DNA of 37,686 nt from assembly GCA_031285725.1 (NCBI GenBank), contig JAITVP010000173.1:1-37686 (forward strand). Direction: 5' to 3'. A program made the position numbers and the translations under genes. Positions 9,699-27,154 of this stretch are shown here, piece after piece. The stretch is from Bacteroidales bacterium (GTDB lineage: Bacteria; Bacteroidota; Bacteroidia; Bacteroidales; WCHB1-69). The notes beneath the pieces were generated by a model that worked only from the letters and a program-made list of their open reading frames with translations, was not told the origin of the DNA and made no database searches. Positions within the stretch are counted from its first letter, which is position 1; each line of letters starts with the position of its first letter.

Positions 9699-11087
9699 AT
9701 GACTCCTTTCACTCAATATATAGTGAATTTGTTTGAGAAAAACGCAAAGCAGTTGACGGAAGGCGATGTGGGTTTTTTAGCAGATTTACGGAAAAAAGCC
9801 ATCGCTGTTTTTGCGGAACGGGGATTCCCCACGGGAAAAATGGAGTCTTGGCGGCATCATCCGTTGGATCAACATGTTGAAAAAGAGTATACGCTACAAC
9901 TCACCCCGGAACCATACCTGCCCATTGATAAAGTTTTTAAATGTAAAATCGGGAATATTGGGACGAATATGTTCACTTTGATGAATGGCTGGTATGTACA
10001 CCAACATGCGCCACTCACCATCTTTCCGAACGGCATGATGGTGGGTTCGCTGTTGATGGCTATCCAACAACATCCCGATCTCGTGAAAGCCCATCTGGCT
10101 CAACAAGATTTACAGAAAACCGATCCGTTAGTGGCTATGAATGAGTCACTTTTCACAGATGGTCTTTTCATTTACGTACCAGACAATCTCCATGTGGATC
10201 AGCCAATTCAGATGGTGAGCTTGGCCACATCTAAAGAAAATTTGTTAATTCAAAATAGAAACCTGATTGTTCTAGGCAAAAATGCCTCGCTCTCGATCAT
10301 TTATTGCAACGACTCCATACATGACGGTAAATCGTTCACCAACAATGTCACAGAGATTAGTTTGGATGAGCAAGCGAAGATGAACTACTACAAAATGGAG
10401 AACAAGGATCCTGATTCGCTGTTGATTGACCATATTTTGGTGGATGGAAAAACGTCCGCCCAATTCCTCTCCAACACAATCACGTTCAACGCCGGTTATG
10501 TGCGCACAATGATCACGGTGAATCTGAACGAGCCTTATGCGGATGCCAAATTGTATGGTTTATATTTGGTTGACAAAATGCAATATGTTGATAACCATGT
10601 TTTTGTATGGCATAAAGCCACAGATTGCACCAGCACGCAACTCTACAAGGGTGTGATCGATAATGAAGCGACAGCGAATTTTAACGGACATATTTTGGTT
10701 GCGCAAGATGCCCAACGCACAGCAGCGTTTCAAACCAACCGTAACATCACGTTGACCGACGAAGCCCGCATCATGACCAAGCCTTTTCTGGAAATTTATG
10801 CCGATGATGTACAATGCAGTCACGGTGCCACGGTCGGGCAGCTCAACGACGAAGCGCTTTTTTACTTGCGTTCACGTGGAATTTGCGAACGTAATGCCCG
10901 TATACTGTTACTCTATGCATTTGCTAATGAAATCGTTGAAACTATCGAGATCGAGAGTTTACGCCATCGCCTAACCGATATGGTGAAAAAAAGGATTCGG
11001 GGCGAGTTTTCCCACTGTGAAGAGTGCGTATTACATTGCTCTGATCCTAAGGATATTACGTTCAGCATAGACGTTAGCAAAATCTGA
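9699..11087 (+). CDS. sufD: Fe-S cluster assembly protein SufD
   Basis: It follows sufC by 2 nt. The C-terminal beta-helix region ...FQTNRNITL...KPFLEIYADDVQCSHGATVGQLNDEALFYLRSRGI... is typical of SufB/SufD. Confidence 0.9.
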   Translation: MTPFTQYIVNLFEKNAKQLTEGDVGFLADLRKKAIAVFAERGFPTGKMESWRHHPLDQHVEKEYTLQLTPEPYLPIDKVFKCKIGNIGTNMFTLMNGWYVHQHAPLTIFPNGMMVGSLLMAIQQHPDLVKAHLAQQDLQKTDPLVAMNESLFTDGLFIYVPDNLHVDQPIQMVSLATSKENLLIQNRNLIVLGKNASLSIIYCNDSIHDGKSFTNNVTEISLDEQAKMNYYKMENKDPDSLLIDHILVDGKTSAQFLSNTITFNAGYVRTMITVNLNEPYADAKLYGLYLVDKMQYVDNHVFVWHKATDCTSTQLYKGVIDNEATANFNGHILVAQDAQRTAAFQTNRNITLTDEARIMTKPFLEIYADDVQCSHGATVGQLNDEALFYLRSRGICERNARILLLYAFANEIVETIEIESLRHRLTDMVKKRIRGEFSHCEECVLHCSDPKDITFSIDVSKI

Positions 11088-11092
11088 TATTG

Positions 11093-13540
11093 ATGATTTA
11101 TCCACATACTTTTGAAGAAAAAACAGGATTCATTCAACTACGATCACTGCTTAGTGACCAGTGTGTCAGTGAGATGGCACGGGAAAGGGTAGAATCGTTA
11201 TCCTATTCTTCCGATTTTCAAGAAATTAAATTGCGCATCGAACAAACTGAAGAGTTCCGGTCGGTGCTTCTTTTCGAGGATCCGTTTCCGGCTCAGGAAT
11301 TCTACGATCTGCGGCCTGTTTTTCAACGGATACACATTGATGGCACGTTCATTGAACTTGAAGAGTTGGTGTTATTGCGGGGTTTCATTAATGCGATAAC
11401 GCAAGTTTTTGTCTATTTTCGGATACAAAATGATGAGGAAAAATATCCACGCCTGTGGGATTTGTGCAAGGATATACAATTGGAAAAGAATCTATTAGAA
11501 TCTATTAACAAGGTATTGGATCCCAAAGGAAATTTGCGGGACAACGCTTCGGATGAGTTGCGGCGGATCAAGCGGGAAATTATTCGGGTTTCCGGGGAAG
11601 CGGATAAAAAAATTCGGAAGATATTGTTAGAGGCCAAACAAAACGGCTTGGTAAAAGAGGATGCCGAGATGACCATCCGGAACGGTCGGGTCTGTATTCC
11701 CGTGCCTTCCGTTTTTAAACGGCGGATGCAGGGTTTCATTCACGATGAATCGGCTACAGGACAAACCGTTTTCATCGAACCCACGGCGGTATTTGATGCT
11801 AATAATGCGTTAAAAGATTTGATTAATGCTGAAAAAAGAGAAATTATCCGTATTCTCACTGAACTGAGCAACGAGATCCGCCCCGCCATCCCAAACCTAA
11901 TGACCGGGCACGATTTTATCGGTGAAATTGACTTCATCCGGGCGAAAGCCAAGTTAGCCATCGAGATCAAAGGAATCAAGCCGAACGTATTGGATGATAC
12001 GATTATAAATTGGCAAGACGCCGTCCATCCTTTGCTATTCCTCAACTTTAAAGGAACCGGCAAGAAAGTAGTGTCGTTGTCTTTACAACTCACAAAAAAT
12101 GAGCGCGTTTTGATCATTTCTGGACCCAATGCCGGTGGGAAATCTGTTTGCCTTAAAACCGTGGGACTGTTGCAATATATGTTGCAATGCGGTTTGTTAG
12201 TTCCGATGAAAGAGACATCCGACATGGGTGTTTTCGAGGATTTTTTTATCGACATTGGCGATGAACAATCCATTGATAATGATTTGAGTACATACAGTTC
12301 ACATTTGTATAATCTGAAAACGATGATTGAGCATCTGAATGCGAAATCGTTATTTTTGATTGATGAGTTTGGTTCGGGAACAGAGCCGGTGTTAGGCGGT
12401 GCTATGGCGGAGTCGATCTTGGAGAGGATCTACGATCTGCAGCCATTCGGCATTATTACCACACACTTCGGCAATTTGAAAGTGTTTCCCGACACCCACA
12501 AAGAGGCAATCAATGGGGCAATGTTATTTGACACGCAAGCACTTAAACCTCTGTTTATCTTGAAAGTAGGCAAACCGGGCAGTTCGTTCACTTACGAAAT
12601 CGCCCGCCAAATAGGATTGCCGTCAGAGATTATTAATACCGCCATCCAAAAATCGGGAACGGCACAAATTGATTATGAGAAGAAGTTAGAAGATGTTGAA
12701 TTAGAAAAGATTGAAATCGACAAAACGTTGAAGTTAGTGCACAATGCCGATGATCAGTTGGCCGCTATGATTCAAGAATATACCGACAAGTATAACCTCT
12801 TGGAAAAACAACGCAAAGATATTCTGACCCAAGCCAAAAATCAGGCTATATCCATCATTGACAATGCTAACAAATTGATAGAAAAAACGATCCGGGATAT
12901 CAAGGAAGCACAAGCCGAACCGGTGAAGACCAAAGAAATCCGGAAGGAAGTCGCAGAGCAGAAGGAGGTGATCAAGCAACAGCCGTTGCCTACCCCAACC
13001 GTGGAGATTCCCAAACCTGTTCCGGTGAAAAAATGCCCTGCTCCGAAAATCAAACCGGAAACCGCTGAAGACACGAAAATCAAAGTGGGCGATTTGGTTT
13101 TTATGGCCGACACACAGATCACCGGCGAGGTAATGATACTGAACGGTCGAGACATCACCATCGGATTCAACTCCATCAGTCTGCGAACGACCATCGACAA
13201 AGTGATAAAAATCAGCAAGAAAGAAGCGAGAACGGTGGCGAGAACTTCCAAAATGGACGGTACCACGATTTCGGAAGTGATGAACCGCAAGGTCGCCGAG
13301 TTCAACCACACGTTGGATCTTCGGGGTAAGCGCGCCGACGAAGCCGTTGAAGAGTTGGAAACCTACGTGGATGAGGTTTTACTGCTCGGCGTCAAACAGG
13401 TGAAGATCTTACATGGCAAAGGCAATGGAATCCTGCGTCACGTTGTCCGCCAAGCCTTAGGCAAACGCAAGGAAGTGCGCGCTTTCCGAGATGAGATGTT
13501 GGAATTGGGAGGAGCAGGGATTACGGTGGTGGAGATGTAG
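11093..13540 (+). CDS. mutS2: Endonuclease MutS2 (MutS domain V ATPase plus C-terminal Smr domain)
   Basis: Walker A ISGPNAGGKS, LIDEFGSGTEP, a Lys/Glu-rich coiled coil, and an Smr tail LDLRGKRADEA...KILHGKGNGILR. The track start at 11090 is TTG; the adjacent ATG at 11093 is preferred. Confidence 0.9.
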   Translation: MIYPHTFEEKTGFIQLRSLLSDQCVSEMARERVESLSYSSDFQEIKLRIEQTEEFRSVLLFEDPFPAQEFYDLRPVFQRIHIDGTFIELEELVLLRGFINAITQVFVYFRIQNDEEKYPRLWDLCKDIQLEKNLLESINKVLDPKGNLRDNASDELRRIKREIIRVSGEADKKIRKILLEAKQNGLVKEDAEMTIRNGRVCIPVPSVFKRRMQGFIHDESATGQTVFIEPTAVFDANNALKDLINAEKREIIRILTELSNEIRPAIPNLMTGHDFIGEIDFIRAKAKLAIEIKGIKPNVLDDTIINWQDAVHPLLFLNFKGTGKKVVSLSLQLTKNERVLIISGPNAGGKSVCLKTVGLLQYMLQCGLLVPMKETSDMGVFEDFFIDIGDEQSIDNDLSTYSSHLYNLKTMIEHLNAKSLFLIDEFGSGTEPVLGGAMAESILERIYDLQPFGIITTHFGNLKVFPDTHKEAINGAMLFDTQALKPLFILKVGKPGSSFTYEIARQIGLPSEIINTAIQKSGTAQIDYEKKLEDVELEKIEIDKTLKLVHNADDQLAAMIQEYTDKYNLLEKQRKDILTQAKNQAISIIDNANKLIEKTIRDIKEAQAEPVKTKEIRKEVAEQKEVIKQQPLPTPTVEIPKPVPVKKCPAPKIKPETAEDTKIKVGDLVFMADTQITGEVMILNGRDITIGFNSISLRTTIDKVIKISKKEARTVARTSKMDGTTISEVMNRKVAEFNHTLDLRGKRADEAVEELETYVDEVLLLGVKQVKILHGKGNGILRHVVRQALGKRKEVRAFRDEMLELGGAGITVVEM

Positions 13541-14379: not shown

Positions 14380-15897
14380 ATGCAGTTGATCCCCCCGCTT
14401 CTCAGAAGCTATTTTCTTTTACGGAAACAACGTATAGAAAATACCCGAAAAAATCCCATCCCACAACAACATCAATGGTTCAACTACTTGACCAAACACG
14501 GAAACGGCACCCTTTTCTTTCAAGATTTCGATCTCTATGACCAGATTTCTTACCAAACTTTCACCGACAATGTTCCCCTGCAAAACTACAATTCGCTTTT
14601 TCCTTACATCGAAAAAATAATCAAAGGTGATGCTAACATACTGTGGAACATGCCAATCAAATGGATGGCGAAATCTTCGGGAACCACGGAAACTAAAAGC
14701 AAATTCATTCCGGTCAGCCGGGAATCCCTGTGGATCAACAACTACCGTTGCGCTCAAGACACTCTGACCTGTTACAGCCTTTTATTTCCTAAGAACAAGT
14801 TTTTTTCGGGAAAAAGTTTGGCTTTAGGCGGCTGTTTCGAAGAAAAAGCAGAAAATACGGCGATTCGCGTCGGCGATGTTTCCGCCATATTGCTCGGTAA
14901 TATACCTCAAATTGGGGATTTTTTGAAAGCCTCCAACAGGAAAATCCTATTGCACGACAACTGGAATGAAAAATTGTCAATGTTAGCGCAAAGCACGGTC
15001 AATCAAAATGTAACATCGCTTTCCGGTGTTCCGTCTTGGATGTTGCTCGTGTTACGGGAAGTGTTGAAAATTTCCGGCAAAGAACATATCAAAGACGTGT
15101 GGCCCAATTTGGAAATCTTCATGCACGGCGGAGTTTCGTTTGCACCCTATAAGGAAGAGTACAAAAAAATGATTCCTGATGGCAGCATTTTTTACATGAA
15201 TATGTATAATGCGTCCGAAGGATTTTTTGGTTTTCAAGATCAAAGGGATTCCGATGACATGCTGCTTTTGACCGACTGCGGCGTGTTTTATGAATTTATT
15301 CCCATCGACGAAGTGGGCGTGATAAATAACAACGCTATTCCGTTAGAAGGTGTTAAAATCGGTCAAAATTATGCGATGGCGATCACCACGCCGGCCGGTT
15401 TGTGGCGTTATATCATCGGTGATACCGTGCAATTTACTTCCACTTCACCCTATCGTTTCAAGATCACGGGACGGACTATGCACTATATCAACGCTTTTGG
15501 CGAGGAACTGATCATCGACAATGCAGACAATGCACTCTATTGGGCTTGCGAGCAAACCGGCGCGTCATTCACCGATTACACGGTAGCTCCCGTTTTCCTC
15601 GAAAAGGATAAATCCAAGGCTTGCCATGAGTGGGTGATCGAATTTGCGAGCCCTCCGGCCGATCTTCCCCATTTCACAAAACTGTTAGATGACAAGCTCC
15701 AATCACTTAATTCCGACTATGAAACGAAGCGCACCGGTGAACTGATCCTGAATATGCCAACAATACACATCGCTCCCCAAGGCACTTTCATGAAGTGGCT
15801 CGATTCCCGGGGACATTTAGGCGGTCAACACAAAGTGCCACGTTTGCAAAACGATCGAAAGATTATGGAGGAAATTTTGCCGATGGTGTATTTTTAA
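14380..15897 (+). CDS. GH3 auxin-responsive-promoter family (acyl-adenylate-forming) protein
   Basis: WMAKSSGTTETKSKFIPVS plus a 505-aa length, as in the GH3-family proteins common in Bacteroidetes. Confidence 0.8.
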   Translation: MQLIPPLLRSYFLLRKQRIENTRKNPIPQQHQWFNYLTKHGNGTLFFQDFDLYDQISYQTFTDNVPLQNYNSLFPYIEKIIKGDANILWNMPIKWMAKSSGTTETKSKFIPVSRESLWINNYRCAQDTLTCYSLLFPKNKFFSGKSLALGGCFEEKAENTAIRVGDVSAILLGNIPQIGDFLKASNRKILLHDNWNEKLSMLAQSTVNQNVTSLSGVPSWMLLVLREVLKISGKEHIKDVWPNLEIFMHGGVSFAPYKEEYKKMIPDGSIFYMNMYNASEGFFGFQDQRDSDDMLLLTDCGVFYEFIPIDEVGVINNNAIPLEGVKIGQNYAMAITTPAGLWRYIIGDTVQFTSTSPYRFKITGRTMHYINAFGEELIIDNADNALYWACEQTGASFTDYTVAPVFLEKDKSKACHEWVIEFASPPADLPHFTKLLDDKLQSLNSDYETKRTGELILNMPTIHIAPQGTFMKWLDSRGHLGGQHKVPRLQNDRKIMEEILPMVYF

Positions 15898-16013
15898 AAA
15901 TAAACAAGACAACAGTAATTCAAACACTCAATCTGTAAATCGGAAGAAAAGAAATCGAGATTTAGATTGTAGAAATTATCACTATTATGTATCAATCATA
16001 TACGCAACACGCT

Positions 16014-16046
16014 AAAAATGAAATAAAGTTTGTTTATTCCATTTTT
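16014..16046. terminator. Possible bidirectional terminator between the convergent GH3 gene and the peptide operon
   Basis: aaaaATGAAATAAAgtttgTTTATTCCATtttt is a 10-bp AT-rich stem with one mismatch, flanked by an A-run and a T-run. Weak. Confidence 0.35.
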
Positions 16047-16069
16047 AACGTATGGAGAATGCTCTCTTT

Positions 16070-16378
16070 TTATACAATGGTCGTCACTGTTATATTAGTA
16101 GAGATGTAGGAATTTTCACGAATAGAAACAGGTGATATTACCGCACATAAATTTGCACCAGCATTACAACCCACATTCAATGTGGTATCAGCGGCCGAAC
16201 ATTTTTCAAGATGATCAGCTCTTATTAATGTTTCTCCTGAAGTACATTTCACAGTAATCCTAATTTCTACTCCTCCCAAGAGATTAACCATTTGTTCATT
16301 CTTAATCTTATAAGTAGCAAATAATGAATTAAGAATATTTGTCTCTATTTTTTTTGTTTTTTTCATAATCGTCTTCAT
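16070..16378 (-). CDS. Precursor peptide, B-type, copy 2 (double-glycine leader, Cys-rich core)
   Basis: Leader ...IKNEQMVNLLGG, then VEIRITVKC-x14-CSAADTTLNVGC. It is a paralogue of 18870-19157 (shared LGG.EI.I...C, EKCSAADT, GA.L..VI.P). The start is 1 nt after the A2 stop. An alternative ATG lies at 16366. Confidence 0.75.
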   Translation of the reverse strand: MKTIMKKTKKIETNILNSLFATYKIKNEQMVNLLGGVEIRITVKCTSGETLIRADHLEKCSAADTTLNVGCNAGANLCAVISPVSIRENSYISTNITVTTIV

Positions 16379-16379
16379 A

Positions 16380-16658
16380 TTAAAAATGAGTCACTGTCAT
16401 TTGAGGCATCCTATCACTTTTAGGCAAAATTGACTTAACACATGGCCCTTCTTTCAAACTAGCAGTTAAAGAGCATTCATATGTAACATCCCCTATGGTA
16501 ACACTTAAACATGAACCTACACCAAATGGTGTGCAATACAATGTAGTTGAGGAACCATTGCATTTTACCATATCGCCTCCTATAATATCGCCAATGACAT
16601 TTATTGAAAATTTGTTAAAATCATCGATTTTCTTTTCTATTAAATTTATTTTTTTCAT
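16380..16658 (-). CDS. Precursor peptide, A-type, copy 2 (double-glycine leader, Cys-rich core)
   Basis: MKKINLIEKKIDDFNKFSINVIGDIIGG, then DMVKCNGSSTTLYCTPFGVGSCLSVTIGDVTYEC. It is a paralogue of 19181-19459, with about half of positions identical by hand alignment. Confidence 0.75.
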   Translation of the reverse strand: MKKINLIEKKIDDFNKFSINVIGDIIGGDMVKCNGSSTTLYCTPFGVGSCLSVTIGDVTYECSLTASLKEGPCVKSILPKSDRMPQMTVTHF

Positions 16659-16674
16659 ATAGCATTTTTATTCA

Positions 16675-17502
16675 TTAAAATTCTAAAATCTCCATATAAA
16701 CCCGAAAACCAACAGTTATATCTTTATCTTTATATATTTTTTTGGATGTAGTTCTCACTTCATATCCTAGTGATAAAAAATCCCCTCCCATAGCAATACT
16801 ATCTATTTGCACCATCTCTGATACATTTCCTACAATATCAAAAACACCGTAAGGGGTTGTTCCATAACTAGCGACAGGTTGAGTACTGTTATTGGGCAAG
16901 GTATTATAGTATCCATATCGAAGTTCATATCGATCAATAAACATAAGATTTTCTTGAGGAAGTGCAGTGAAGTTACAAAGTTTGTCTTTTTTTTGATCAT
17001 ACAACGTATTGTTTCCCCAAGGATAGAAAATTTTTTCAATATCAAAACCTGAACTTGCCACTCTGATAAATTCTTCCTCTGTAGGCAATCGGAACAGAAC
17101 TTTTTTGTATTGTTTCTTCGAACTTGAATTATATTTATCTGTCAACCAACGACAAAATTCAATTGCACTATAATATGAAATGCCAACGACAGGATGATCT
17201 TGAAATAAATCATCATTGAAATAATAGTCTTTATTTCCATACGAAGTTGACTCCCACGTTTTTTCCCATAATGTAGAATCATACATCACTAAAGAATTAT
17301 CCAATCCTTTTTCCTTTCTTTCTGTTAAAAATAATTTATAATCTTTTATTGTAACTTCGTATTTGTCAACATAATAGGTGTCCGAAATTTTCACAAACCG
17401 ATTTTTAAAATCAATGATGTAAGGCACTTCCTGTTTTTTCATTGAGCCACATAACAATACATATGGAATAATTGCAACAAATAAAAATAATTTACTTTTC
17501 AT
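16675..17502 (-). CDS. FGE/SUMF1-fold (formylglycine-generating-enzyme family, GldJ/GldK-like) protein with N-terminal signal or lipoprotein sequence
   Basis: YYVDKYEVTIKDYKLFL, HPVVGISYYSAIEFCRWL, FRLPTEEEF, YGVFDIVGNVSEMV and GFRV follow the PF03781 motif order. The N-terminus MKSKLFLFVAIIPYVLLCGS is hydrophobic with a possible lipobox Cys. The ATG overlaps the rSAM gene end by 11 nt. Confidence 0.8.
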   Translation of the reverse strand: MKSKLFLFVAIIPYVLLCGSMKKQEVPYIIDFKNRFVKISDTYYVDKYEVTIKDYKLFLTERKEKGLDNSLVMYDSTLWEKTWESTSYGNKDYYFNDDLFQDHPVVGISYYSAIEFCRWLTDKYNSSSKKQYKKVLFRLPTEEEFIRVASSGFDIEKIFYPWGNNTLYDQKKDKLCNFTALPQENLMFIDRYELRYGYYNTLPNNSTQPVASYGTTPYGVFDIVGNVSEMVQIDSIAMGGDFLSLGYEVRTTSKKIYKDKDITVGFRVYMEILEF

Positions 17503-18814
17503 TATTGTTTATTTTTTTGGTTAAATAATGTGTATATAATAACTCTCCCAATCCATTTTTATAAACTGAGCATATATTATGTCGTGCAGCGAAATATTTA
17601 TTTTCAATACGATCATGTTGACAGCCTCCTCCACATATCGGAAATATTTTGCAAATAGAACAATTTTCATCATAAAATGGGTGGCATGCTGTTAAATATT
17701 TTGTATAAAGTCTATGATTAATAAACCCTTTAGAATTAATATTTCCTATCACCTTATCTTTTCTACCTACGTCCAACCAACATTTTGTAATATCACCATT
17801 TGCATCAATCACAAAAGAATTTGCGTGCTGTGCCATACAAATATTATCTCTTACAAAAGGATAATAACCTATATTAATTCCATATTTAAAAAACAATTCT
17901 AACTTAAAATCTAATTGATTTTTAGTGTCTAAAGTGCAACCAGCTCCAGTATTACAAGCGCTAGTGTCTTGAACAAAACCAGGATAAATTTGAATATTCT
18001 TATTTAATCCAAATACATCATTAAACTGTTTCAAAAGTATAGGAAATTCATCCTTATTCTCTTTATCAACATTCACTCGCAAATGAACAATTATTTCAGG
18101 TTGTAATTTTACAAGATTAGAAATATTTGTTATAATTTTTTGATATGAATCTTTATTGGTTAGATGAGGACGACGTTTATTGTGTGTCTCTTCTATCCCA
18201 TCAACTGTTATTTGAATTGTTTTGACAAATATCTTGTCCAATTGTTCGATTATTGTTTCATCCAATAAATAGCCATTTGTGGTTATATCCGCAATTATTT
18301 TTACACCATTATCCTTAATAAACGGTATATTACTTACACGATTTGTAATATCAACCATTTTGTCAAATGCTAATAAAGGTTCACCACCATACCATTGAAT
18401 AGAAATGGTCTTGATATGATTTTGATTGCTTATTAACTTAATAATGTTATCTTTTGTTACATCATTAATGGTGATATGAGGTCGTTTCTTTTCATAACAA
18501 TAACCACAATTAAAATTGCAGGCAAGTGTGGGTATTATAGTGAGATTTAATATTGATTTATCACTACAACGATTATTATACATTAATAATCGTTCCAACA
18601 ATATATCATCTTCTTCATCATTATCAAAAACAAAATTTGCGTTTTTTAAATCTTCTAAATCTTCTAATGAAATTGAATGTTCACAAAATTCGTCATCCTT
18701 AAGAAAATTTATTATTTCCTTATCTACCTCCATAAATGAATTAGATAAAGCATTATAAATGAAAAATTCTTTATTGTTTATACAAAATAAATTATTATAC
18801 TTTGATTTTTTCAT
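17492..18814 (-). CDS. Radical SAM / SPASM-domain peptide maturase (anSME-like)
   Basis: CNFNCGYCYE is the CxxxCxxC motif, and GGEPLL is present. SPASM motifs are CMAQHANSFVIDANGDITKC (C-x13-G-x4-C) and CSICKIFPICGGGC (CxxCx5Cx3C). A ~95-aa N-terminal extension precedes the AdoMet cluster motif. Confidence 0.9.
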   Translation of the reverse strand: MKKSKYNNLFCINNKEFFIYNALSNSFMEVDKEIINFLKDDEFCEHSISLEDLEDLKNANFVFDNDEEDDILLERLLMYNNRCSDKSILNLTIIPTLACNFNCGYCYEKKRPHITINDVTKDNIIKLISNQNHIKTISIQWYGGEPLLAFDKMVDITNRVSNIPFIKDNGVKIIADITTNGYLLDETIIEQLDKIFVKTIQITVDGIEETHNKRRPHLTNKDSYQKIITNISNLVKLQPEIIVHLRVNVDKENKDEFPILLKQFNDVFGLNKNIQIYPGFVQDTSACNTGAGCTLDTKNQLDFKLELFFKYGINIGYYPFVRDNICMAQHANSFVIDANGDITKCWLDVGRKDKVIGNINSKGFINHRLYTKYLTACHPFYDENCSICKIFPICGGGCQHDRIENKYFAARHNICSVYKNGLGELLYTHYLTKKINNNEK

Positions 18815-18869
18815 ATAAAAACATATAATAAAGAATATATACCAACTCTTAGTAAATGTTTTTTGACTT

Positions 18870-19157
18870 TTAAAAAAAAGTCACAGCAGATATTGTACTT
18901 GGGGTGTGTGAGAATTGTGACGTGACCGAGGGAGCAATTACTCCACTTAATGTTGCACCAACAGAACACTCAAAATATAAATTAGTATCTGCTGCTGAAC
19001 ATTTTTCGATATGCTCTTTCTTACTCAATTTATCAGTACCATTACATCTAATTTCAATAGTAATTTCTATTCCACCTAAAATATTTGCCAAATCTTCATT
19101 TTTTATCTCATAATCATTGAAAATGGAATTTGAGATATTCGCTTCTATTTTATTCAT
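18870..19157 (-). CDS. Precursor peptide, B-type, copy 1
   Basis: MNKIEANISNSIFNDYEIKNEDLANILGG, then IEITIEIRC-x14-CSAADTNLYFEC...GATLSGVIAP...ISAVTFF. Confidence 0.75.
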   Translation of the reverse strand: MNKIEANISNSIFNDYEIKNEDLANILGGIEITIEIRCNGTDKLSKKEHIEKCSAADTNLYFECSVGATLSGVIAPSVTSQFSHTPSTISAVTFF

Positions 19158-19180
19158 TTTACTTGTTTTTTATGCATGAA

Positions 19181-19459
19181 CTATAAATAATATACCTGTA
19201 AATCAATAAATTGACCCGATGATGTATTTTGCGTGTCAATAACGGATTTTTCTTTTTTTAATTTCCCTGTGCCTTGACATATATACGTCTCTTCACCAAT
19301 TGTAACTGTAAGACAACTTCTTTTAAATGGTGTGCAAGTTAATGTAGCTCCTGTATTGCATTTCAGGACAACCCCACCCCCTAATATACTATCTAAATTT
19401 TCTATTGAAAAATTACTGAAATTTTCTATTGGTTTTTCTATCATCTTCATTTTTTTCAT
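19181..19459 (-). CDS. Precursor peptide, A-type, copy 1
   Basis: MKKMKMIEKPIENFSNFSIENLDSILGG, then GVVLKCNTGATLTCTPFKRSCLTVTIGEETYIC. It is the first gene downstream of the -7 box at 19492-19499. Confidence 0.75.
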   Translation of the reverse strand: MKKMKMIEKPIENFSNFSIENLDSILGGGVVLKCNTGATLTCTPFKRSCLTVTIGEETYICQGTGKLKKEKSVIDTQNTSSGQFIDLQVYYL

Positions 19460-19491
19460 ATTAAATCAGGTTTATTATTATAAATGTGCTG

Positions 19492-19499
19492 CAAAAATA
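19492..19499 (-). promoter_or_regulatory. -7 promoter box TAttTTTG for the peptide operon
   Basis: The plus strand reads caaaaata, 32 nt upstream of the A1 ATG. A TTTG lies 14 nt further upstream. Confidence 0.5.
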
Positions 19500-19609
19500 C
19501 AATATTTTTTTCACAAAAATCAATTGTTCTAAAATAAAACTCAAGAAACAATCACTACTGTCCGCTAAAAGTGTAAATCAGCAATATTTCACTCGTATCT
19601 AAATGATAT

Positions 19610-19909
19610 TCAGTATTTTTGTGTATTCATCAAAAGTAAGTCACCCGCATTTCCGGGAATAGCGTATTTTGATATTCCCGTAGTGCTCACCATCATATTT
19701 ATTGCTATATTCTTAATATTGACGCTTTTAATGAAAAATAAAAGCTGATTTAAAATTGGCAACTGTAGTAAAGAAGATATTCTGAGTGACCATATAATAA
19801 ATGCATATTGGAACGCAAATAAGAATATTATAAGACATGTCAAGATTGTGAATTTAGAAACATTTGTATGATGCGAGATTACCAGAACTCTAAAAACTGT
19901 ACTTCTCAT
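19610..19909 (-). CDS. Doubtful small membrane ORF between ftsW and the peptide operon
   Basis: The ATG lies inside the last codons of ftsW (20-nt overlap). The 99 aa contain one or two hydrophobic helices (FTILTCLIIFLFAFQYAFIIWSL). It is AT-rich like the island. No homology recognised. Confidence 0.25.
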   Translation of the reverse strand: MRSTVFRVLVISHHTNVSKFTILTCLIIFLFAFQYAFIIWSLRISSLLQLPILNQLLFFIKSVNIKNIAINMMVSTTGISKYAIPGNAGDLLLMNTQKY

Positions 19910-20996
19910 TTTCCACTTTCTTGCTAATATTCAGTAGCACGCCGAACATGATGCCGGAGAAGAGCAGGGAGGAGCCGCCACGGCTGATGAGCGGGAGGGT
20001 TTGGCCGGTGGCGGGGATAGCGGCACAATTGACGGCAATGTGAATCAGTGCCTGGAAAGTGATCCAGAAACCGATGCCAATGGCTAAGAGGCGGCCAAAA
20101 TAACCATCACTCTTTTTGGCAATCTGCATACTGCGAAAGAAGAGGATCAGGTAGAGCAGCATAATGAGGAAACCCACAATGATGCCCACTTCCTCCACCA
20201 CGGTGGCAAACACGTAGTCGGTCTCTTTTTCCGCCAACACGTTCTTGATCTCCCCTTGTCCGGGACCGGCGGGAGTCCATGCCGAACGGGCAATAGCGGC
20301 CTGCGACAACACCATCTGTTTAATATACAGACTGGTCTTGGGATCAGGAACCTGATCGAAATTGCGGGAAATGCTGAAGTTCCGGAAACGACTCGCTCCG
20401 GTTTCCGTTTTCCCCAAGCCCAATCCGAAATAGATGCCGGCAATGACCACCGCCATGACAATAAAGGTAAAGAGATATTTCCGGCTGAGGTTTCCCACAA
20501 AGAGTACGACAAAACAGGAAGCACCCAAAATGATGGAGGTGGAAAGGTTGGATTTGGCGAATATTAAGCAAAAAAAGCCGATAATTCCAAACAAAACCAA
20601 CGATTCTTTGATAGAAAGTTCTTCCCCTTTGTTAAGTCGTATAGCGATAAATTTCGAAATAAAAAAGATGAGGAGAAAACCGATCAGATAAAAGGTTTGC
20701 ATGGAAAAACTGCCGATAGTGATGGAACGGTCGTCGACACCGCCAAACGCCGTGATTAATGCCAAGACGAGCGCAACGACCAGGAAAATGTCGGAACCGG
20801 CCGACAGGGTACGGTAGTCGATTTTGTAGAACAAAAACATCGCCCCATAACATGCGACAATGTGTACCAACTGACTGCCAAATCGATGCGTAGAACTTGG
20901 AACGATGTAAAACGATATTAATGAGAGCGTTATCGCAATGATCAATATCACCTTATCGCCCCGGAAATAGGTGGTAAGACTTGACGTTTTCTCCAT
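19890..20996 (-). CDS. ftsW: SEDS-family peptidoglycan glycosyltransferase FtsW
   Basis: Ten-TM layout, ...ETDYVFATVVEEVGIIVG... and ...PATGQTLPLISRGGSSLL... are FtsW/RodA/SpoVE signatures, and the position in dcw fits. The track start at 21005 is TTG; the ATG at 20996 is preferred. Confidence 0.85.
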   Translation of the reverse strand: MEKTSSLTTYFRGDKVILIIAITLSLISFYIVPSSTHRFGSQLVHIVACYGAMFLFYKIDYRTLSAGSDIFLVVALVLALITAFGGVDDRSITIGSFSMQTFYLIGFLLIFFISKFIAIRLNKGEELSIKESLVLFGIIGFFCLIFAKSNLSTSIILGASCFVVLFVGNLSRKYLFTFIVMAVVIAGIYFGLGLGKTETGASRFRNFSISRNFDQVPDPKTSLYIKQMVLSQAAIARSAWTPAGPGQGEIKNVLAEKETDYVFATVVEEVGIIVGFLIMLLYLILFFRSMQIAKKSDGYFGRLLAIGIGFWITFQALIHIAVNCAAIPATGQTLPLISRGGSSLLFSGIMFGVLLNISKKVENEKYSF

Positions 20997-21008
20997 GGTG
21001 ACCAATCG

Positions 21009-21536
21009 TTATAACTGCGCAATGGCTTTTCTGAACTTGATGCTTCGCTCGGCGGTGGAAGTGAGTGCGCCACGGTGGATGGCTCCCGGAGAATACAATA
21101 CCGCATCGCCGTCGTTCGACGCATAAAACGCAACACGTACCGCATCTTCCATCGTCACCGCAAAAGCCATCTCGATGCCGATCCCGCTGAAGAAATCAAT
21201 AACTTCAGCGTTGTAAACACCTTGAATCACAATTCGTTTCACTTTCTTCGCCACACACAACGCCAGATCATCCGCAATCTCTTCCAAATTGCTGATGTTC
21301 ATAATCCACGTGATCGGTTTGTGCACCTTCTCGATCGCATACCATACCGAATAAGCATTGACCGCCCCCGAATCATCGATGAAATCAATGCTCTGGATCG
21401 TTTTGCGGTATTTCACCCGATATTCCCCATCTTCAAAACTAGAGAAAATCTTTTGCAAATTCGACTCCCGTGTCGCAATCAAATGGCTGTGCAACGTTTG
21501 TGCCAGTGTCTTTTTCATGTTGTTTTCGCTATACAT
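21009..21536 (-). CDS. Free-standing MurD C-terminal-domain homologue (N-terminal and ATP-binding domains absent; possible remnant)
   Basis: The 175 aa align by eye with the last ~170 aa of MurD (...F.DGEYRVKY....IDFIDDSGAVN.YSVWYAIE....ITWI...KRIVIQG...MEDAVRVAF..A.DGDAVLYSPG...ERSIKFRKAI). Only 27 nt separate it from the mraY stop. Typical MurD is ~445 aa. Confidence 0.7.
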   Translation of the reverse strand: MYSENNMKKTLAQTLHSHLIATRESNLQKIFSSFEDGEYRVKYRKTIQSIDFIDDSGAVNAYSVWYAIEKVHKPITWIMNISNLEEIADDLALCVAKKVKRIVIQGVYNAEVIDFFSGIGIEMAFAVTMEDAVRVAFYASNDGDAVLYSPGAIHRGALTSTAERSIKFRKAIAQL

Positions 21537-21563
21537 GTCTTTTGGTTTTATTTCGATTTATAA

Positions 21564-22817
21564 CTATCTGACTTTCAGTGTGACAACGGTCAACACGGCG
21601 AGCATGATGCCCACAATGATGAACCGTTGGACGATTTTCGCCTCATGGAATCCTTTTTTCTGGTAATGATGATGCAGCGGTGCCATCAGTAAGTAACGTT
21701 TTCCCTCACCATACTTTTTCTTGGTGTATTTGAAGTAGCACACTTGGATAATGACCGACAGGGATTGCACCACGAAAATCCCGCACAAAATGGGAATCAG
21801 CAGCTCCTTGCGGATGATGATGCAGAGCACGGCGATCATGCCGCCGAGCGTCAAACTGCCGGTGTCGCCCATGAAAATTTGAGCCGGATAGCAGTTCCAC
21901 CAATAGAACCCGATGCAGGCACCGATCAGAGCGGCGGTGAAGATTACCACCTCGCTGATATTAGGTATGTACATAATATTCAAGTAGTCGGCGAAGATAG
22001 CATTGCCGGAAACGTAGGCCAGCACGGCGATGCCAACAGCGATGATTGATGAGATACCGGCCGCCAACCCGTCTAACCCGTCCGTGAGGTTGGCTCCGTT
22101 CGAGACAGCGGCGATGATGAAAATGATAATCAAAATGTAGACGATCGTCGTCAAAATACCCGACTCATCACCCAGCCAATGGGTGAGCCAAGTGTAATCA
22201 AACTCGTTGTTCTTGATGAACGGGATGGTCGTTTTTGTCGAGTGTTCGGCGGGACTGTCGGTGAACGCAGTGGTCGTTTTCGTGGCGTTGTCAAATGTGA
22301 AAATCGCATCCGTGCTGGTGATCTCGCTCTTTTTCATCTTCTCCTTGATCACCACATCGGGATGGAATGCCATCACCATCCCGATAATAATCCCCAAAAT
22401 CACTTGTCCGATCAGCTTTTTCTTGCCAGCCAATCCTTCCTTGTTTTTCTTGTAAACTTTAATATAATCATCCGCAAAGCCCAGTAAACCCAACCAAACA
22501 GTAGTAAAGATCATAAGAATGATGTAGATGTTATGCAGTTTGGTGAGCAACAACACGGGAACCAAAATCGAAGCGATGATGAGCAGGCCCCCCATCGTGG
22601 GAGTTCCCTTTTTTTCCATCTGCCCCGCCAATCCAAGGTCGCGGATATCTTCGCCGATCTGCTTATTACGCAATACATAGATCACCTTTTTTCCGATGAT
22701 GATTGAGATGAAAAGCGACGTGATAATGGCTAAAGCAGCGCGGAAAGAGATGTATTGAAACAGCCGCGCGCCGGGAAAATCGAAACCTGCTAACCAGTCA
22801 AACAGATAATATAACAT
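21564..22817 (-). CDS. mraY: Phospho-N-acetylmuramoyl-pentapeptide transferase
   Basis: MLYYLFDWL..., [40 protein letters not shown]. 417 aa. Confidence 0.95.
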
Positions 22818-22898
22818 AACGTTCTTATTTAGACATGAATAATTAATAACGGAATAGTATCCCTTTTTTTAATTTGTTTATACGATTCATTTTTAGTA

Positions 22899-24389
22899 TC
22901 AAATATTAACTATTAATTCTCTTGGATTTAAAAATTCTTTCACGACTTCCGAATCATCAAAATGATATTTCACGTCGTTAATTTCCTGATAGTTCTCATG
23001 TCCTTTTCCTGCCACAAGCAGCACGCCGTCGTTGGGGAGTATCATACATGCGGTTTTGATGGCCTCCCGCCGGTTCTCGATCGTGAGGACGTTGTGCCTC
23101 TTCTCTATCGGCACGCCTTTTTCCATATCTTCCAGAATTGCATGGGGATCTTCCTTGCGTGGATTGTCGGACGTGAGGATCACCTTGTTGCTGTATTTGC
23201 AGGCGATTTCCGCCATGGCAGGACGTTTCAGCGCATCGCGTTCGCCGCCGCAACCCACCACGGTAATGATCTCCACGCTGTTTTGAGTGATATCATGAAT
23301 GGTAGACAACACATTTTGCAATGCATCCGGCGTGTGGGCGTAATCGATGATTGCAATGCGGTTGCGATCGCGCAGCACTTGAAAACGACCATCGGCGCTT
23401 TCCAAATTACTCATTACCACCAGTACCTCATCGCTGTTTTCACCCAGCAGCATAGCTGTACCATAAATCGCCAACAAATTGTATGCATTGAACTTACCTG
23501 TCAGTTTAAAGAAAATTTCTTCATTATTGATGATCAATTGAAGGCCTTCAAAACTGTTATCCAAAATCTTCCCTTTAAAATCGGCTAAACTGTTGAGACT
23601 GTATGCGCTGATTGATGCCTTGCTGGTTTGGGTCATCACTAACCCGTTGCGGTCATCTTTGTTAGTGAGAGCGAACGCATTGGGAGGCAGTGCGTTAAAA
23701 AATCCTTGTTTCGCCTTGATGTAAGCGGCAAAAGTTTTGTGGAAATCAAGATGATCGTGGGTGATGTTGGTGAAAACGCCACCCCTGAACTCCAAACCGC
23801 TGATCCGCTTCTGCTGAACGGCGTGGGAACTCACTTCCATAAAACAATATTCGCAACTCTCTTCCACCATGCGGTTTAGTAGGCGGTTCAGCTGCACCGC
23901 ATCCGGTGTGGTGTGTGTGGACGGGATGATTTCGTCATTGATCCGGTTCTCAATCGTGGAGATCAATCCGGTGAGATGCCCCAACGACCGGAAAAGACGA
24001 TACAGCAATGTGACAATGGTGGTTTTGCCGTTTGTACCGGTAACACCAACCAAATGAAGTTGTTGAGAAGGGAAATTGTAGAAAGCGGACGCCAACAGGC
24101 CCAGCGTTTCCGCCGTGTCGTTGACAATAATATAGGTAATATCTGATTGTGTTTTTTCAGGAATTGATTCGCATACAACCGTTTGCGCGCCTTTCGCAAT
24201 CGCCTCATCGATGAACTTTCCACCATCGACATTCGTTCCTTTTTGAGCCACAAATAACGGATATGCTTCATTATCGGCCTCTTGCCGGATTGTCCGCGTG
24301 TCGAACGCGATCGCCGAAATCCGTCGATCCGTGCGGCCAATAATCGCTTCCACACTGATAAATTTCAATAAGTCATCAAGTTCTTTCAC
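22899..24389 (-). CDS. murE: UDP-N-acetylmuramoyl-L-alanyl-D-glutamate--2,6-diaminopimelate ligase
   Basis: GVTGTNGKTT, DYAHTPDAL, and LTSDNPRKEDP (the DNPR motif of meso-DAP-adding MurE). GTG start per the ORF track. Confidence 0.9.
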   Translation of the reverse strand: MKELDDLLKFISVEAIIGRTDRRISAIAFDTRTIRQEADNEAYPLFVAQKGTNVDGGKFIDEAIAKGAQTVVCESIPEKTQSDITYIIVNDTAETLGLLASAFYNFPSQQLHLVGVTGTNGKTTIVTLLYRLFRSLGHLTGLISTIENRINDEIIPSTHTTPDAVQLNRLLNRMVEESCEYCFMEVSSHAVQQKRISGLEFRGGVFTNITHDHLDFHKTFAAYIKAKQGFFNALPPNAFALTNKDDRNGLVMTQTSKASISAYSLNSLADFKGKILDNSFEGLQLIINNEEIFFKLTGKFNAYNLLAIYGTAMLLGENSDEVLVVMSNLESADGRFQVLRDRNRIAIIDYAHTPDALQNVLSTIHDITQNSVEIITVVGCGGERDALKRPAMAEIACKYSNKVILTSDNPRKEDPHAILEDMEKGVPIEKRHNVLTIENRREAIKTACMILPNDGVLLVAGKGHENYQEINDVKYHFDDSEVVKEFLNPRELIVNI

Positions 24390-24453
24390 GTTTTATAAAA
24401 TTGTTGGCTTGGTTTAAATCTTTTCAAAAGTTTGCGACAAAGTGAAAGATGAT

Positions 24454-26727
24454 TTACAAGCCAAGTGTTAATGTTACGGTGTTATTTTTGTCGGGTGCGG
24501 ATTGCCGGCGCACCACGCCTTTCCCTATAATTATGGTTTTATATCCCTCTTTTTGTAAACGATAAATCGCATCGGAAGCACTCATCATCAACACATTGGG
24601 AATATTGTTTTCATCATATTCTACCTCTTTCGCCGTCTCGCCCCACGCTCCTCCTTCGGTAATCCCAAGGTTGTAATAATACTCGGGATCGGAAACAATG
24701 CCTTGATTCAATTTCATTTTTCCTTGGATGATCTCAAGTTGCTCGCCCGACACGCTGCGATTGCCTGCGGGAAGCGACACACCGTTCCCTGTACTCACGG
24801 TTTGCACTTTTCCCAAATCGGTCAAACTCATGACTTGCTGCACAATGTGTGCAAACGCATCCACAGCAATAGAGCTTTTTTTGTGCACGTCATAAATGAA
24901 AATGATACACGAATATTGCGGATTTTCGGCGGGAAAATAGCCGCAAAATGATACGCTGTTCCGATTTTTCAGGTAGCCTTTTGTTTCACGATCCCACACG
25001 TCACGGGTTCCGGTTTTGCCGGCAAACGAGTACTTGGCGTTGCGGTACCGACGGGCGGTGCCATGCTCGCCATTCACCACCGACCGTAAATAATTCTGCG
25101 CACGTGCGATTGTGCTGAATTTGCACATCCGCTCCTTTAATACTTCCGCCTCAAACTTTGCAATCGTGTCTTTCCCGTTGATGATGCACTTCACAAACAG
25201 CGGGGCGATCATTTTTCCGTCATTTGCCACGGCGTTGAAATAGGTCAGCGTTTGGATCGGCGTGGTACTGATCCCCGTGCCAAAACAGATGTTGTAGTAG
25301 CTGTGGAAGTCGTCCTCCCGCACCCAGCGTTTGAGGTCGGGTGCGGGCGAAGTGCCAAGGTGCGTGTAGAACGTGGTGCTGATGCCCATGGAGTCTAACT
25401 TATCTAAGTAATCGCTGTATCCTTTGTATCGATCGAAAATCATGGAAGCGATGCCTACGTTGGAAGAGCGCTGGAACGCCTCGATAGGATACGCCCAAGC
25501 CTCGCTTTTTCCCGGCTCGTCGGCTTTGGAATATTTGACCATCCGTCCCGATGGCCGTTTCACTTGGAACGTGTGTGCCAAAATCGGGTATTTTTTCGCC
25601 TCATCGTCTGTTGTTCTATCCAAATACGCCAACAGTGAAGCTAACTTGAACGTGGAACCCGGCTCAACTTGCTTGTTCACAGCAAAGTTCGTAACCTCTT
25701 TATAGAACGTGTGGGAGGAGTCCATGGATGTGAGGTTGGAAATGGCCTTCACCTCACCGGTTTTGACATCCATCACCACGGCACACCCCCAGCCGGCCCA
25801 GTGGTTTCGCAACGTGTAATAGAGTTCGTTTTGCACAATATTCTGAATATCCAAATCCAGCGTGGTGTGCACATCATAGCCGTTTTGCGGCATCGTCTCG
25901 TCCTCCATCGGAATGTCGATCAGACTGACCACCACTTTTTTCTTCGCACCGGGAACACCCCTCAGGAACGTGTCCATCTCGAACTCCAATCCGTTCCATT
26001 TTTTATCATGTTCGTATCCGACAGTTCGTTTCGCCAGATCTCCGTAAGGATTCAACCGTGCCCGCCGCGGATTCAAACTGAGTGATCTTTTGAAATGATC
26101 CTTATCGAAAATGGTGAAACTTGTGATGAAATCAATATCCTCGTCCACAATCCAACTCCGATCGTTATTGGGATTAGAATGATGGATGAGTACGATGGCG
26201 GAATCTCTCAACGCTTGGGTCAATTTCGCTTGATAATAAGCCGCATTTTTGTTAAATCGGGATTTGAAATGGTCATGCATGGCCTGAGCCAACACCTGTA
26301 TGCTGGAATCAATCTGGCTTTCCGTCAAAAACGAGGCTTTATAATCGGGATCCTTCTTTATATTTCTATTATATGTGTCACAATATCGTCTATTGGTAAT
26401 CTTGAAATCCCGACCATCGATGGTTAAATCGTAGATCATGATGGAACTGGCGAGCACTCTCCCTTTGCTGTCGTAGATATCGCCCCGCCGCGGAATCTTC
26501 TCGTTCATCACGACAAAGCAGTTGCAATTGGGGTTTTTAGCCAACGCCAGCGTGTCCCAGCCCGGCACGGTTTTGTCCAAACATTTTTCGCTTTCACCCA
26601 TGAACAGTGAACGATAGCTGATCGCCAGTGTGAGAATACGGACAATACAATACATCGCAAATACGACTAAAATACCGTATATCAAGAACATGCGTCCGTT
26701 AGACTGTTTTACCGCTTTTTGATCCAT
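24454..26727 (-). CDS. ftsI: Class B penicillin-binding protein / septal transpeptidase with C-terminal PASTA-like domain
   Basis: Active-site motifs STFK (PGSTFKLASLL), SSN (QRSSNVGIA) and KTGT (AGKTGTR), with an N-terminal TM anchor. The tail ...IPNVLMMSASDAIYRLQKEGYKTIIIGKGVVRRQSAP... is PASTA-like. Confidence 0.9.
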   Translation of the reverse strand: MDQKAVKQSNGRMFLIYGILVVFAMYCIVRILTLAISYRSLFMGESEKCLDKTVPGWDTLALAKNPNCNCFVVMNEKIPRRGDIYDSKGRVLASSIMIYDLTIDGRDFKITNRRYCDTYNRNIKKDPDYKASFLTESQIDSSIQVLAQAMHDHFKSRFNKNAAYYQAKLTQALRDSAIVLIHHSNPNNDRSWIVDEDIDFITSFTIFDKDHFKRSLSLNPRRARLNPYGDLAKRTVGYEHDKKWNGLEFEMDTFLRGVPGAKKKVVVSLIDIPMEDETMPQNGYDVHTTLDLDIQNIVQNELYYTLRNHWAGWGCAVVMDVKTGEVKAISNLTSMDSSHTFYKEVTNFAVNKQVEPGSTFKLASLLAYLDRTTDDEAKKYPILAHTFQVKRPSGRMVKYSKADEPGKSEAWAYPIEAFQRSSNVGIASMIFDRYKGYSDYLDKLDSMGISTTFYTHLGTSPAPDLKRWVREDDFHSYYNICFGTGISTTPIQTLTYFNAVANDGKMIAPLFVKCIINGKDTIAKFEAEVLKERMCKFSTIARAQNYLRSVVNGEHGTARRYRNAKYSFAGKTGTRDVWDRETKGYLKNRNSVSFCGYFPAENPQYSCIIFIYDVHKKSSIAVDAFAHIVQQVMSLTDLGKVQTVSTGNGVSLPAGNRSVSGEQLEIIQGKMKLNQGIVSDPEYYYNLGITEGGAWGETAKEVEYDENNIPNVLMMSASDAIYRLQKEGYKTIIIGKGVVRRQSAPDKNNTVTLTLGL

Positions 26728-27089: not shown

Positions 27090-27154
27090 GATATATATTT
27101 TAGTAAACAAGAGACGAGTTAACAAGTGGACAGAGGGAGAGTCTTGTCAACCTA

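Follow-up and report, generated by a model that had tools for sequence, protein, structure and literature searches.

Loci that pair precursors carrying a double-glycine (GG) leader with a radical S-adenosylmethionine (rSAM) enzyme, and that would specify peptides made on the ribosome and modified after translation (RiPPs), have been described bioinformatically in Bacteroidota, as 'sactipeptide-like' clusters of Bacteroides (PMC4573289) and in a survey of Bacteroidales RiPPs (PMC10352776). A lipoprotein gene was reported inside such a cluster in B. fragilis 3_1_12 (PMC4573289). Thuricin CD (PMC3132745) is a two-peptide sactibiotic whose components, Trn-alpha and Trn-beta, are distinct rSAM-modified Cys peptides encoded side by side and acting together. 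PorK, a type IX secretion system (T9SS) ring protein, adopts the fold of formylglycine-generating enzyme (FGE) but is described as non-enzymatic, both catalytic Cys being absent and the substrate groove being reused for protein binding (PMC12421860). Here we analyze a 37,686-nucleotide stretch of a Bacteroidales genome (contig JAITVP010000173.1 of assembly GCA_031285725.1), referred to as the window, in which six genes occupying 3.4 kb encode two families of GG-leader, Cys-rich precursor peptides (A and B), an rSAM enzyme with a SPASM domain and an FGE-fold protein. The reading that we favor, with modest confidence, is that of a horizontally acquired operon for a two-peptide, rSAM-cross-linked RiPP accompanied by a PorK-like exported accessory protein.

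The six minus-strand open reading frames (ORFs) of the operon have the order, lengths and spacings attributed to them in an earlier description made from the letters of the window (the sequence-only reading). The GG leaders and conserved Cys patterns that it had noticed in four small ORFs are present, and its identification of an rSAM/SPASM enzyme and an FGE-fold protein is confirmed by Pfam and NCBIfam matches to Radical_SAM, TIGR04085 and FGE-sulfatase. An 11-nt stretch (17492-17502) is common to the rSAM and FGE-fold genes, the A2 stop and the B2 start lie one nucleotide apart and the remaining intergenic gaps measure 16-55 nt. The two A copies share 44% identity and the two B copies 45%. 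Leaders of the window peptides end in ILGG, IIGG, ILGG and LLGG at residues 28, 28, 29 and 36, and a [LIVF]-x-GG or [LIV][LIVF]GG motif lies at residues 24-36 in all 17 A and B sequences, with the hydrophobic residue at position -4 by which GG leaders are recognized. A and B share a Bacteroidota-type leader with an N-terminal KKI..IE and a C-terminal L/I-x-GG, and their profiles cross-match through it (E 5e-6 to 2e-4), which fits a single enzyme recognizing both.

Beyond the leader, the predicted cores form two unrelated families, A and B, that are co-conserved, as the sequence-only reading had proposed. The A core follows the pattern C-x3-4-G-x-[TS]-L-x-C-[TSA]-P-F-x2-3-C-x2-V-x-[IT]-x4-6-[YF]-x-C, with four invariant Cys, and the B core the pattern C-x3-5-[ED]-x-L-x7-9-C-x6-7-[LF]-x3-C-x2-[GE]-[AGS]-x-L, with three; a C-x2-3-G-x-x-L unit occurs once in A and twice in B. 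Cores of both families measure 43-75 aa and are neutral to acidic. Both families recur beside orthologous rSAM genes in independent metagenomic loci (hidden Markov model E 1e-28 to 1e-41), and since they do so with invariant Cys the operon pattern is not due to chance. Adjacent A-B pairs are found twice in the window, twice in each of loci L002 and L003 and once in L004, and A and B alternate in every related locus. The A profile retrieved eight clusters among 5.8e9 and the B profile 10 matches among 1.84e9 representatives, nine of them B peptides; among the loci compared, the two profiles match only those of this rSAM subfamily. The sequence-only reading had allowed that homologues of the small ORFs might occur mostly without the enzymes; A and B occur almost nowhere else.

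The tetrad C-[TSA]-P-F is invariant in eight of eight A peptides (window, L002, L003, L004 and L172) and resembles the first four positions of the sulfatase motif C-x-P-x-R, which is recognized by both FGE and the anaerobic sulfatase-maturating enzyme (anSME); the Arg of that motif is not conserved in A cores. No match to the A profile was found among Protein Data Bank (PDB) sequences, and the single match to the B profile, a B-box zinc finger, was rejected as being at chance level. Also set aside, as compositional or due to chance, were the weak matches of the B profile to four HYR-like repeats (summed E 7e-7) of P0195, a 1776-aa Bacteroidota-type surface protein, whose residues ~515-572 and three repeats share a '..I.V.C......D.C' pattern with B.

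The enzyme matches Radical_SAM PF04055 with 67.9 bits (cut-off 29.5), and its motif C99-x3-C103-x2-C106 (C99-NFN-C103-GY-C106) is invariant across 30 homologues. The SPASM domain, a C-terminal module whose 7-8 Cys hold two auxiliary clusters, is recognized by TIGR04085 (54.8 bits, cut-off 27), the Pfam SPASM score of 17 bits lying under its cut-off of 21.5, and seven further Cys (326, 345, 385, 388, 394, 398 and 415) are invariant in the C-terminal part. With an N-terminal extension of ~90 aa, the protein is matched over its full length (residues 1 to ~436) best by the maturase families Clo7bot TIGR04334 (245 bits), TIGR04463 (233) and CefB NF038107 (192), whose respective cut-offs of 600, 525 and 600 it does not reach. 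Lower scores were obtained with the geopeptide (153 bits), PapB (116, cut-off 340) and SCIFF (84, cut-off 425) maturases, so that the enzyme falls under the cut-off of every named NCBIfam maturase family, and the L002 and L004 orthologues give the same picture. The only solved structure detectable by sequence is that of CteB (5wgg, E 2.7e-10), which covers the rSAM core, residues 83-256. Relatives above 60% identity number three among 5.8 billion protein clusters (75, 68 and 62%), the next standing at ~40%, and no relative above 39% was found among GTDB species representatives.

These genes probably constitute an rSAM-dependent RiPP system with two substrate families, and to this extent the RiPP-type operon with GG-leader precursors proposed in the sequence-only reading is upheld. 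The odd number of Cys in B argues against an all-disulfide product and, together with the relatives of the enzyme, makes Cys-to-carbon thioether cross-links of the sactipeptide/ranthipeptide type the likeliest predicted chemistry, a judgement that could go either way; in sactipeptides the Cys sulfur is joined to an alpha-carbon, in ranthipeptides to a non-alpha carbon. Membership in the TIGR04148-04150 set, to which the sequence-only reading had referred, is not borne out: B2 scores 18.0 bits on TIGR04149 (cut-off 25), A1, A2 and B1 have no match at E<=1, and TIGR04148 and TIGR04150 are outside the 25 best NCBIfam families of the rSAM enzyme, each thus scoring below 52 bits, in a locus with a single rSAM gene where cassettes of that pair have two.

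The FGE-fold gene accompanies this enzyme closely. It lies directly 3' of the rSAM gene in all five informative loci, those with sequence available downstream of that gene (window/L001, L002, L004, L172 and L091), with a start/stop overlap in three. In the wider rSAM family, represented by 80 loci with 30-40% identical relatives, neither the FGE-fold gene nor A/B-type peptides were found at any locus; most of the Bacteroidales loci among them carry at least one GG-leader, Cys-rich small ORF directly upstream of the rSAM gene, and 37 of the 80 encode a C39 peptidase-ABC exporter no more than 6 kb away. Such an exporter (Peptidase_C39, 106 bits; ABC_membrane, 91 bits) directly follows the FGE-fold gene in L002. 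The mirrored arrangement, precursors-enzymes-precursors, to which the sequence-only reading had attached importance, turned out to be peculiar to the window, relatives being organized as A-B-A-B-rSAM-FGE or A-B-rSAM-FGE (Table 1). An A gene downstream of the FGE-fold gene was seen only in the window and in L172. In L172 (2258-2581) this A gene has no B after it and is followed by an unrelated 107-aa ORF with no significant Pfam match, which suggests that the downstream precursor position is prone to rearrangement. The degraded locus L091 contains a chimeric ORF (6414-6998) in which a lanthipeptide-type leader (MEKNKKLRLNKMTVAEL...) is fused to the SPASM-bearing C-terminal half of an rSAM enzyme of this subfamily. 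That leader recurs at the start of a Cys-rich peptide 4 kb further downstream (11010-11405), in the company of LanC-like, S41 peptidase and ABC genes, a picture suggestive of recombination between two RiPP loci. The idea that a 51-aa ORF upstream in L003 is an HlyD fragment was dropped for want of Pfam support.

The FGE-fold protein matches PF03781 FGE-sulfatase with 88.2 bits, and its AlphaFold2 model is of high confidence (pLDDT 90.6). The top PDB matches of this model are four PorK structures, followed by FGE, ToxD, CalU17 and PvdO, and EgtB/OvoA domains also figure among the structural matches. Foldseek E-values are 1.5e-14 for PorK (9mzu, 9myj), ~1e-10 for FGE (TM ~0.55) and ~2e-9 for PvdO, and a profile of the subfamily scores 114 bits on PorK versus 54 on FGE. 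The catalytic, copper-binding Cys pair that follows GGS[WF] in FGE is absent: the segment reads AMGGDFLSLGYEVRTTSKK, no conserved Cys occurs there in 43 homologues, and the window protein has no Cys after residue 176. Neither a conserved His nor a Cys cluster exists in the region equivalent to the FGE active site, and the window holds no sulfatase gene encoding the C-x-P-x-R substrate. The match to PorK TIGR03525 amounts to 84.8 bits (cut-off 350) over model positions 188-334 of 408, no porL, porM or porN gene lies near the FGE-fold gene, and the PvdO family scores 15 bits (cut-off 500). Judged by its sequence, the protein is neither a true formylglycine enzyme nor PorK itself. It begins with a hydrophobic signal peptide, which in the window copy is followed by a lipobox-like LLC|GS, several homologues having no Cys at this place. 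The signal peptide implies that the FGE-fold protein works outside the cytoplasm, whereas the rSAM enzyme must work inside. Of the partnership put forward in the sequence-only reading, the conserved gene, translationally coupled to the rSAM subfamily, has stood; a role as co-maturase is unlikely in view of the signal peptide, the missing Cys pair, the closer likeness to PorK and the mostly orphan homologues. We tentatively regard the protein as non-catalytic, acting as a binder or immunity factor, a view that is plausible if somewhat short of probable.

Catalysis after export is a rival reading. PvdO, an FGE-fold protein of the periplasm, acts on pyoverdine precursors after their export, and by analogy the FGE-fold protein could be a tailoring enzyme working on the rSAM-modified peptides once exported, for instance at the C-[TSA]-P-F of A, by oxidation or by cross-linking A to B. 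The tight coupling to the rSAM gene in every informative locus, the sulfatase-like start of this invariant motif and the presence of FGE-fold proteins of other chemistries among the structural matches (PvdO, ToxD, CalU17, EgtB/OvoA domains) speak for such a function. We nevertheless consider it unlikely, because the Cys pair and any conserved His/Cys cluster at the active-site equivalent are missing, the match to PorK is much stronger than that to any enzyme of the fold, the match to the PvdO family is negligible, the Arg of C-x-P-x-R is not conserved in A, and close homologues mostly have no peptide substrate nearby.

Formylglycine is known to be formed in two ways, by anSME and by FGE, and relatives of both folds adjoin in this locus, which prompts a related proposal. 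Instead of making cross-links, the rSAM enzyme might work like anSME and convert the Cys of C-[TSA]-P-F into formylglycine, while the FGE-fold protein would be its degenerate aerobic counterpart or would bind the motif; the partial sulfatase-like motif in the A core and a weak match of the enzyme to the anSME family TIGR03942 (76 bits) point that way. This is very unlikely: the match to peptide cross-linking maturases is threefold better (245 versus 76 bits) and extends over the full length, including an N-terminal extension missing in anSME, the motif has no Arg and does not occur in the B family, which is conserved to the same degree, and the FGE-fold protein has no catalytic residues.

The distribution of the FGE-fold gene is wider than that of the operon. 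Clusters 43-62% identical to the window protein number ~35, many more than for the rSAM enzyme, and in six of six long contigs inspected (L085, L087, L089, L173, L175 and L177) a stand-alone copy (50-62% identical) sits among housekeeping or otherwise unrelated genes. The orphans of L085, L089, L173 and L175 lie 6-11 GC points under their flanks. A rough neighbor-joining tree intermingles the linked copies with the orphans. No rSAM of this family, no A or B and no GG-leader peptides occur in 80 further metagenomic loci with more distant FGE-fold relatives. Several orphans share their sample series (JGI 33000426xx, Logan SRR147109xx) with peptide-linked loci. A gene that is always found with toxin-like genes, and often alone elsewhere, looks like an orphan immunity gene, short of proof, and this pattern lends weaker support to a dedicated maturase. 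The fact that most members of the subfamily stand alone in unrelated housekeeping contexts could also mean that the gene is a passenger, a common small periplasmic protein of Bacteroidales merely lying beside the rSAM gene. That is barely credible: it follows the rSAM gene in 5/5 informative loci diverged to 62-69% rSAM identity or less and overlaps it in three, the pair survives even in the degraded L091, and the absence of the gene from all 80 wider-family loci makes the pairing specific to the A/B-carrying subfamily.

The products need not be toxins. They could instead be signaling, structural/surface or metal-binding peptides, with the PorK-like protein as a periplasmic or outer-membrane receptor or dock, possibly linked to the T9SS or gliding apparatus that this phylum possesses. 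In favor of this view, long, neutral-to-acidic cores with a high predicted beta-strand content differ from typical pore-forming bacteriocins, the accessory protein amounts to a small version of PorK from the T9SS ring, and a T9SS cargo protein bearing a CHU_C domain is encoded on the contig. We hold this to be decidedly unlikely, given that multiple diverged precursors, horizontal transfer as a low-GC island, the C39 exporter of L002 and orphan accessory copies in co-occurring genomes are hallmarks of interbacterial antagonism, and that no conserved regulator or sensor gene lies nearby. Bolder proposals, which place the miniature PorK-like protein at the center of a novel kind of system, are a long shot, whether it is taken as decoy immunity against a two-peptide toxin targeting the PorK/GldK ring of the T9SS and gliding machinery, the orphans being acquired resistance genes, or as a new FGE-fold periplasmic tailoring enzyme reading C-[TSA]-P-F.

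In the cross-linked two-peptide system that we favor, one rSAM/SPASM enzyme would bind the common leader of A and B in the cytoplasm and install intramolecular cross-links on the conserved Cys of both cores. A C39 peptidase-ABC exporter would cut after the GG and export the products, which might act together and might be antimicrobial. The FGE-fold protein, secreted or membrane-anchored, would meet only exported, leaderless peptides and would use the former FGE substrate groove for binding instead of catalysis, as PorK does, serving in an immunity-like manner for self-protection of the producer or for handling of the mature peptides.

A number of points weigh against this proposal. Loci with this rSAM subfamily number ~7, several of them from related sample series, and conservation statistics are thin. 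No C39 peptidase-ABC exporter, which GG leaders require, exists in the 37.7-kb window; a transporter elsewhere in the genome may serve this copy, or the copy may be incomplete, and the contigs of relatives other than L002 break off early. No named family has a cut-off that the rSAM enzyme reaches, so that its chemistry cannot be read across from them, and C-C or C-O cross-links may be formed instead, to the conserved aromatic residue that precedes Cys4 in A (Y/F) or Cys2 in B ([HYW]). Long, neutral-to-acidic cores are unlike typical cationic membrane-active bacteriocins, and the AlphaFold2 model of the A1 precursor, built on an 8-sequence alignment, is uninformative (pLDDT 41) and has no usable or autonomous fold. 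The immunity role is argued from just three things, localization, loss of catalytic residues and orphan distribution, and the orphans may equally reflect a general periplasmic function that was merely recruited here.

The operon fills a low-GC island, probably acquired horizontally, a feature absent from the sequence-only reading: its GC content is 29.0% as against 44.3% for the remainder of the contig, and the same junctions occur in L001, an independent sample. The borders are marked by no terminal repeats, integrase or tRNA, the only repeats within the island are those of the A-B duplication (spacing ~2800 nt), and Rfam and tRNA scans gave no match in or beside it. Plasmid and phage collections returned, as best rSAM matches, sequences only 32-36% identical (Clo7bot ctpM, Paraclostridium plasmids), with no sign of plasmid or phage origin, and PADLOC gave generic viperin-like rSAM similarity only and no known defense system. 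The promoter box seen upstream in the sequence-only reading is there, as the Bacteroidota -7-type TATTTTTG; as an 8-mer it is not significant alone (47 matches in the window versus 34 expected). The same box also lies 20-40 nt upstream of many other window genes; from ftsW to the operon's end, this strand carries just one more (19631-19638). No DNA conservation could be detected among the upstream regions of related loci, and sigma-70 promoter and terminator scans are uninformative in AT-rich Bacteroidota DNA.

Table 1. Features of the window, gene order at related loci and orphan FGE-fold genes (rSAM identities are to the window enzyme)
Feature	Locus	Positions	Strand	Remarks
A1 precursor	window	19181-19459	-	92 aa; 28-aa leader ending in ILGG, 64-aa core
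B1 precursor	window	18870-19157	-	95 aa; 29-aa leader ending in ILGG, 66-aa core
Radical SAM/SPASM peptide maturase	window	17492-18814	-	440 aa; assigned from Pfam/NCBIfam domains and Cys complement
Exported PorK/GldK-like FGE-fold protein	window	16675-17502	-	275 aa; start overlaps rSAM stop
A2 precursor	window	16380-16658	-	92 aa; divergent second A copy
B2 precursor	window	16070-16378	-	102 aa; divergent second B copy; alternative start at Met5 gives a 98-aa form, as called in L001
Low-GC island holding the whole operon	window	15898..19889		Delimited from GC composition and flanking genes
TATTTTTG, Bacteroidota -7-type promoter box	window	19492-19499	-	33 nt upstream of A1
GH3-family gene	window	14380-15897	+	One flank of the island
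ftsW	window	19890-21005	-	Other flank of the island
A-B-A-B-rSAM-FGE-PCAT	L002			rSAM 68% identical
A-B-A-B-rSAM	L003			rSAM 75% identical; contig ends there
A-B-rSAM-FGE	L004			rSAM 62% identical
(partial rSAM)-FGE-A	L172			rSAM more divergent
Lanthipeptide-type leader fused to rSAM C-terminal half, then FGE directly	L091			rSAM 69% identical over residues 283-439; degraded
Orphan FGE-fold gene	L085	7001-7825		Single-gene insert among housekeeping genes
Orphan FGE-fold gene	L089	7001-7825		Single-gene insert among housekeeping genes
Orphan FGE-fold gene	L173	4614-5456		Single-gene insert among housekeeping genes
Orphan FGE-fold gene	L175	5304-6134		Single-gene insert among housekeeping genes

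Several observations concern the surroundings of the operon. In the low-GC stretch upstream of A1, a hydrophobic 99-aa ORF (19610-19909, minus strand) shares 20 nt with ftsW at the stop of the latter; it is matched by neither Pfam nor PADLOC, is found with the same sequence in L001 and could be spurious or encode a small membrane protein of the island. The dcw cluster (mraZ, rsmH, ftsI, murE, mraY, murD', ftsW; 19890-28557) ends at ftsW, exactly where the low-GC island starts, and neither murG nor murC lies downstream. Between mraY and ftsW, an ORF beginning 27 nt after mraY (21009-21536, minus strand) matches only the C-terminal part of MurD (TIGR01087 positions 270-439 of 441; 71 bits, cut-off 212), and murD looks truncated. 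At the other end of the window, a 703-aa protein (305-2416, plus strand) combines fibronectin type III repeats with a C-terminal CHU_C type IX secretion signal, from which it follows that the source organism has a T9SS.

Few rSAM-modified RiPPs of Bacteroidota have been taken to structure, and a six-gene locus of 3.4 kb is a compact test case. Should the PorK-like protein prove to be a factor for immunity or binding, reuse of an FGE groove for binding would have a second example, after PorK, and the orphan copies would record how bacteriocin resistance spreads through these communities. Were it catalytic, new peptide chemistry would be at hand, and tailoring after export would define a new RiPP class combining cytoplasmic rSAM with periplasmic FGE-fold chemistry. 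Either way, the locus answers no long-standing question and is a well-delimited lead for genome mining.

The literature searched contains no description of this gene set, in a family or in a paper, and no FGE-like/SUMF1 partner in RiPP or bacteriocin loci, so that the accessory FGE/PorK-like fold has no earlier tie to RiPP loci there; searches on the NCBIfam names OhkG, FlmE, Clo7bot, CefB and TIGR04463 returned nothing relevant. Compared with PorK/GldK, the FGE-fold protein is likewise exported or lipoprotein-like and likewise devoid of FGE's two catalytic Cys, but it is shorter (275 aa versus 440-490 aa) and has none of the PorK insertion domains. With FGE/SUMF1 it shares the fold, without the catalytic Cys pair or the sulfatase substrate. 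The enzyme resembles Clo7bot CtpM (TIGR04334), the TIGR04463 'very Cys-rich' maturase and CefB in its full-length match, N-terminal extension, SPASM Cys pattern and pairing with Cys-rich precursors, whereas the precursor sequences are unrelated and those families, largely of Firmicutes origin, lack an FGE-fold partner; their chemistry has, to our knowledge, not been established. CteB/SCIFF and PapB are also rSAM/SPASM enzymes, which act on a peptide bound by its leader and join its Cys to non-alpha carbons as thioethers, but similarity to them is limited to the rSAM core, and the precursors have neither a SCIFF nor a Cys-x3-Asp motif. The co-encoded peptide pair recalls thuricin CD, which has two rSAM enzymes, a Gram-positive host and ~30-aa cores; here one rSAM enzyme apparently serves both families, and A and B may likewise act together.

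The closest kin are the Bacteroidota loci that combine a GG leader, an rSAM/SPASM enzyme and a peptidase-containing ABC transporter (PCAT). The GG leader, the Cys-containing core, the adjacent rSAM/SPASM gene, the C39-ABC exporter (here in L002, not in the window) and the Bacteroidales host are all shared with them. Differences lie in the length of the cores (43-75 aa here, ~20-50 aa there) and in the presence here of two alternating core families and of a PorK-like FGE-fold partner; with respect to the TIGR04149/TIGR04148/TIGR04150 loci in particular, the rSAM enzyme belongs to neither TIGR04148 nor TIGR04150 and the precursors fall under the TIGR04149 cut-off. The candidate new RiPP class announced in the sequence-only reading is therefore too strong a description. 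The general kind, GG leader with rSAM/SPASM and PCAT, is already known in Bacteroidota; the two precursor families, their long cores, the single enzyme for both and the conserved PorK-like accessory are new, and the locus is a very rare, uncharacterized variant within this widespread class.

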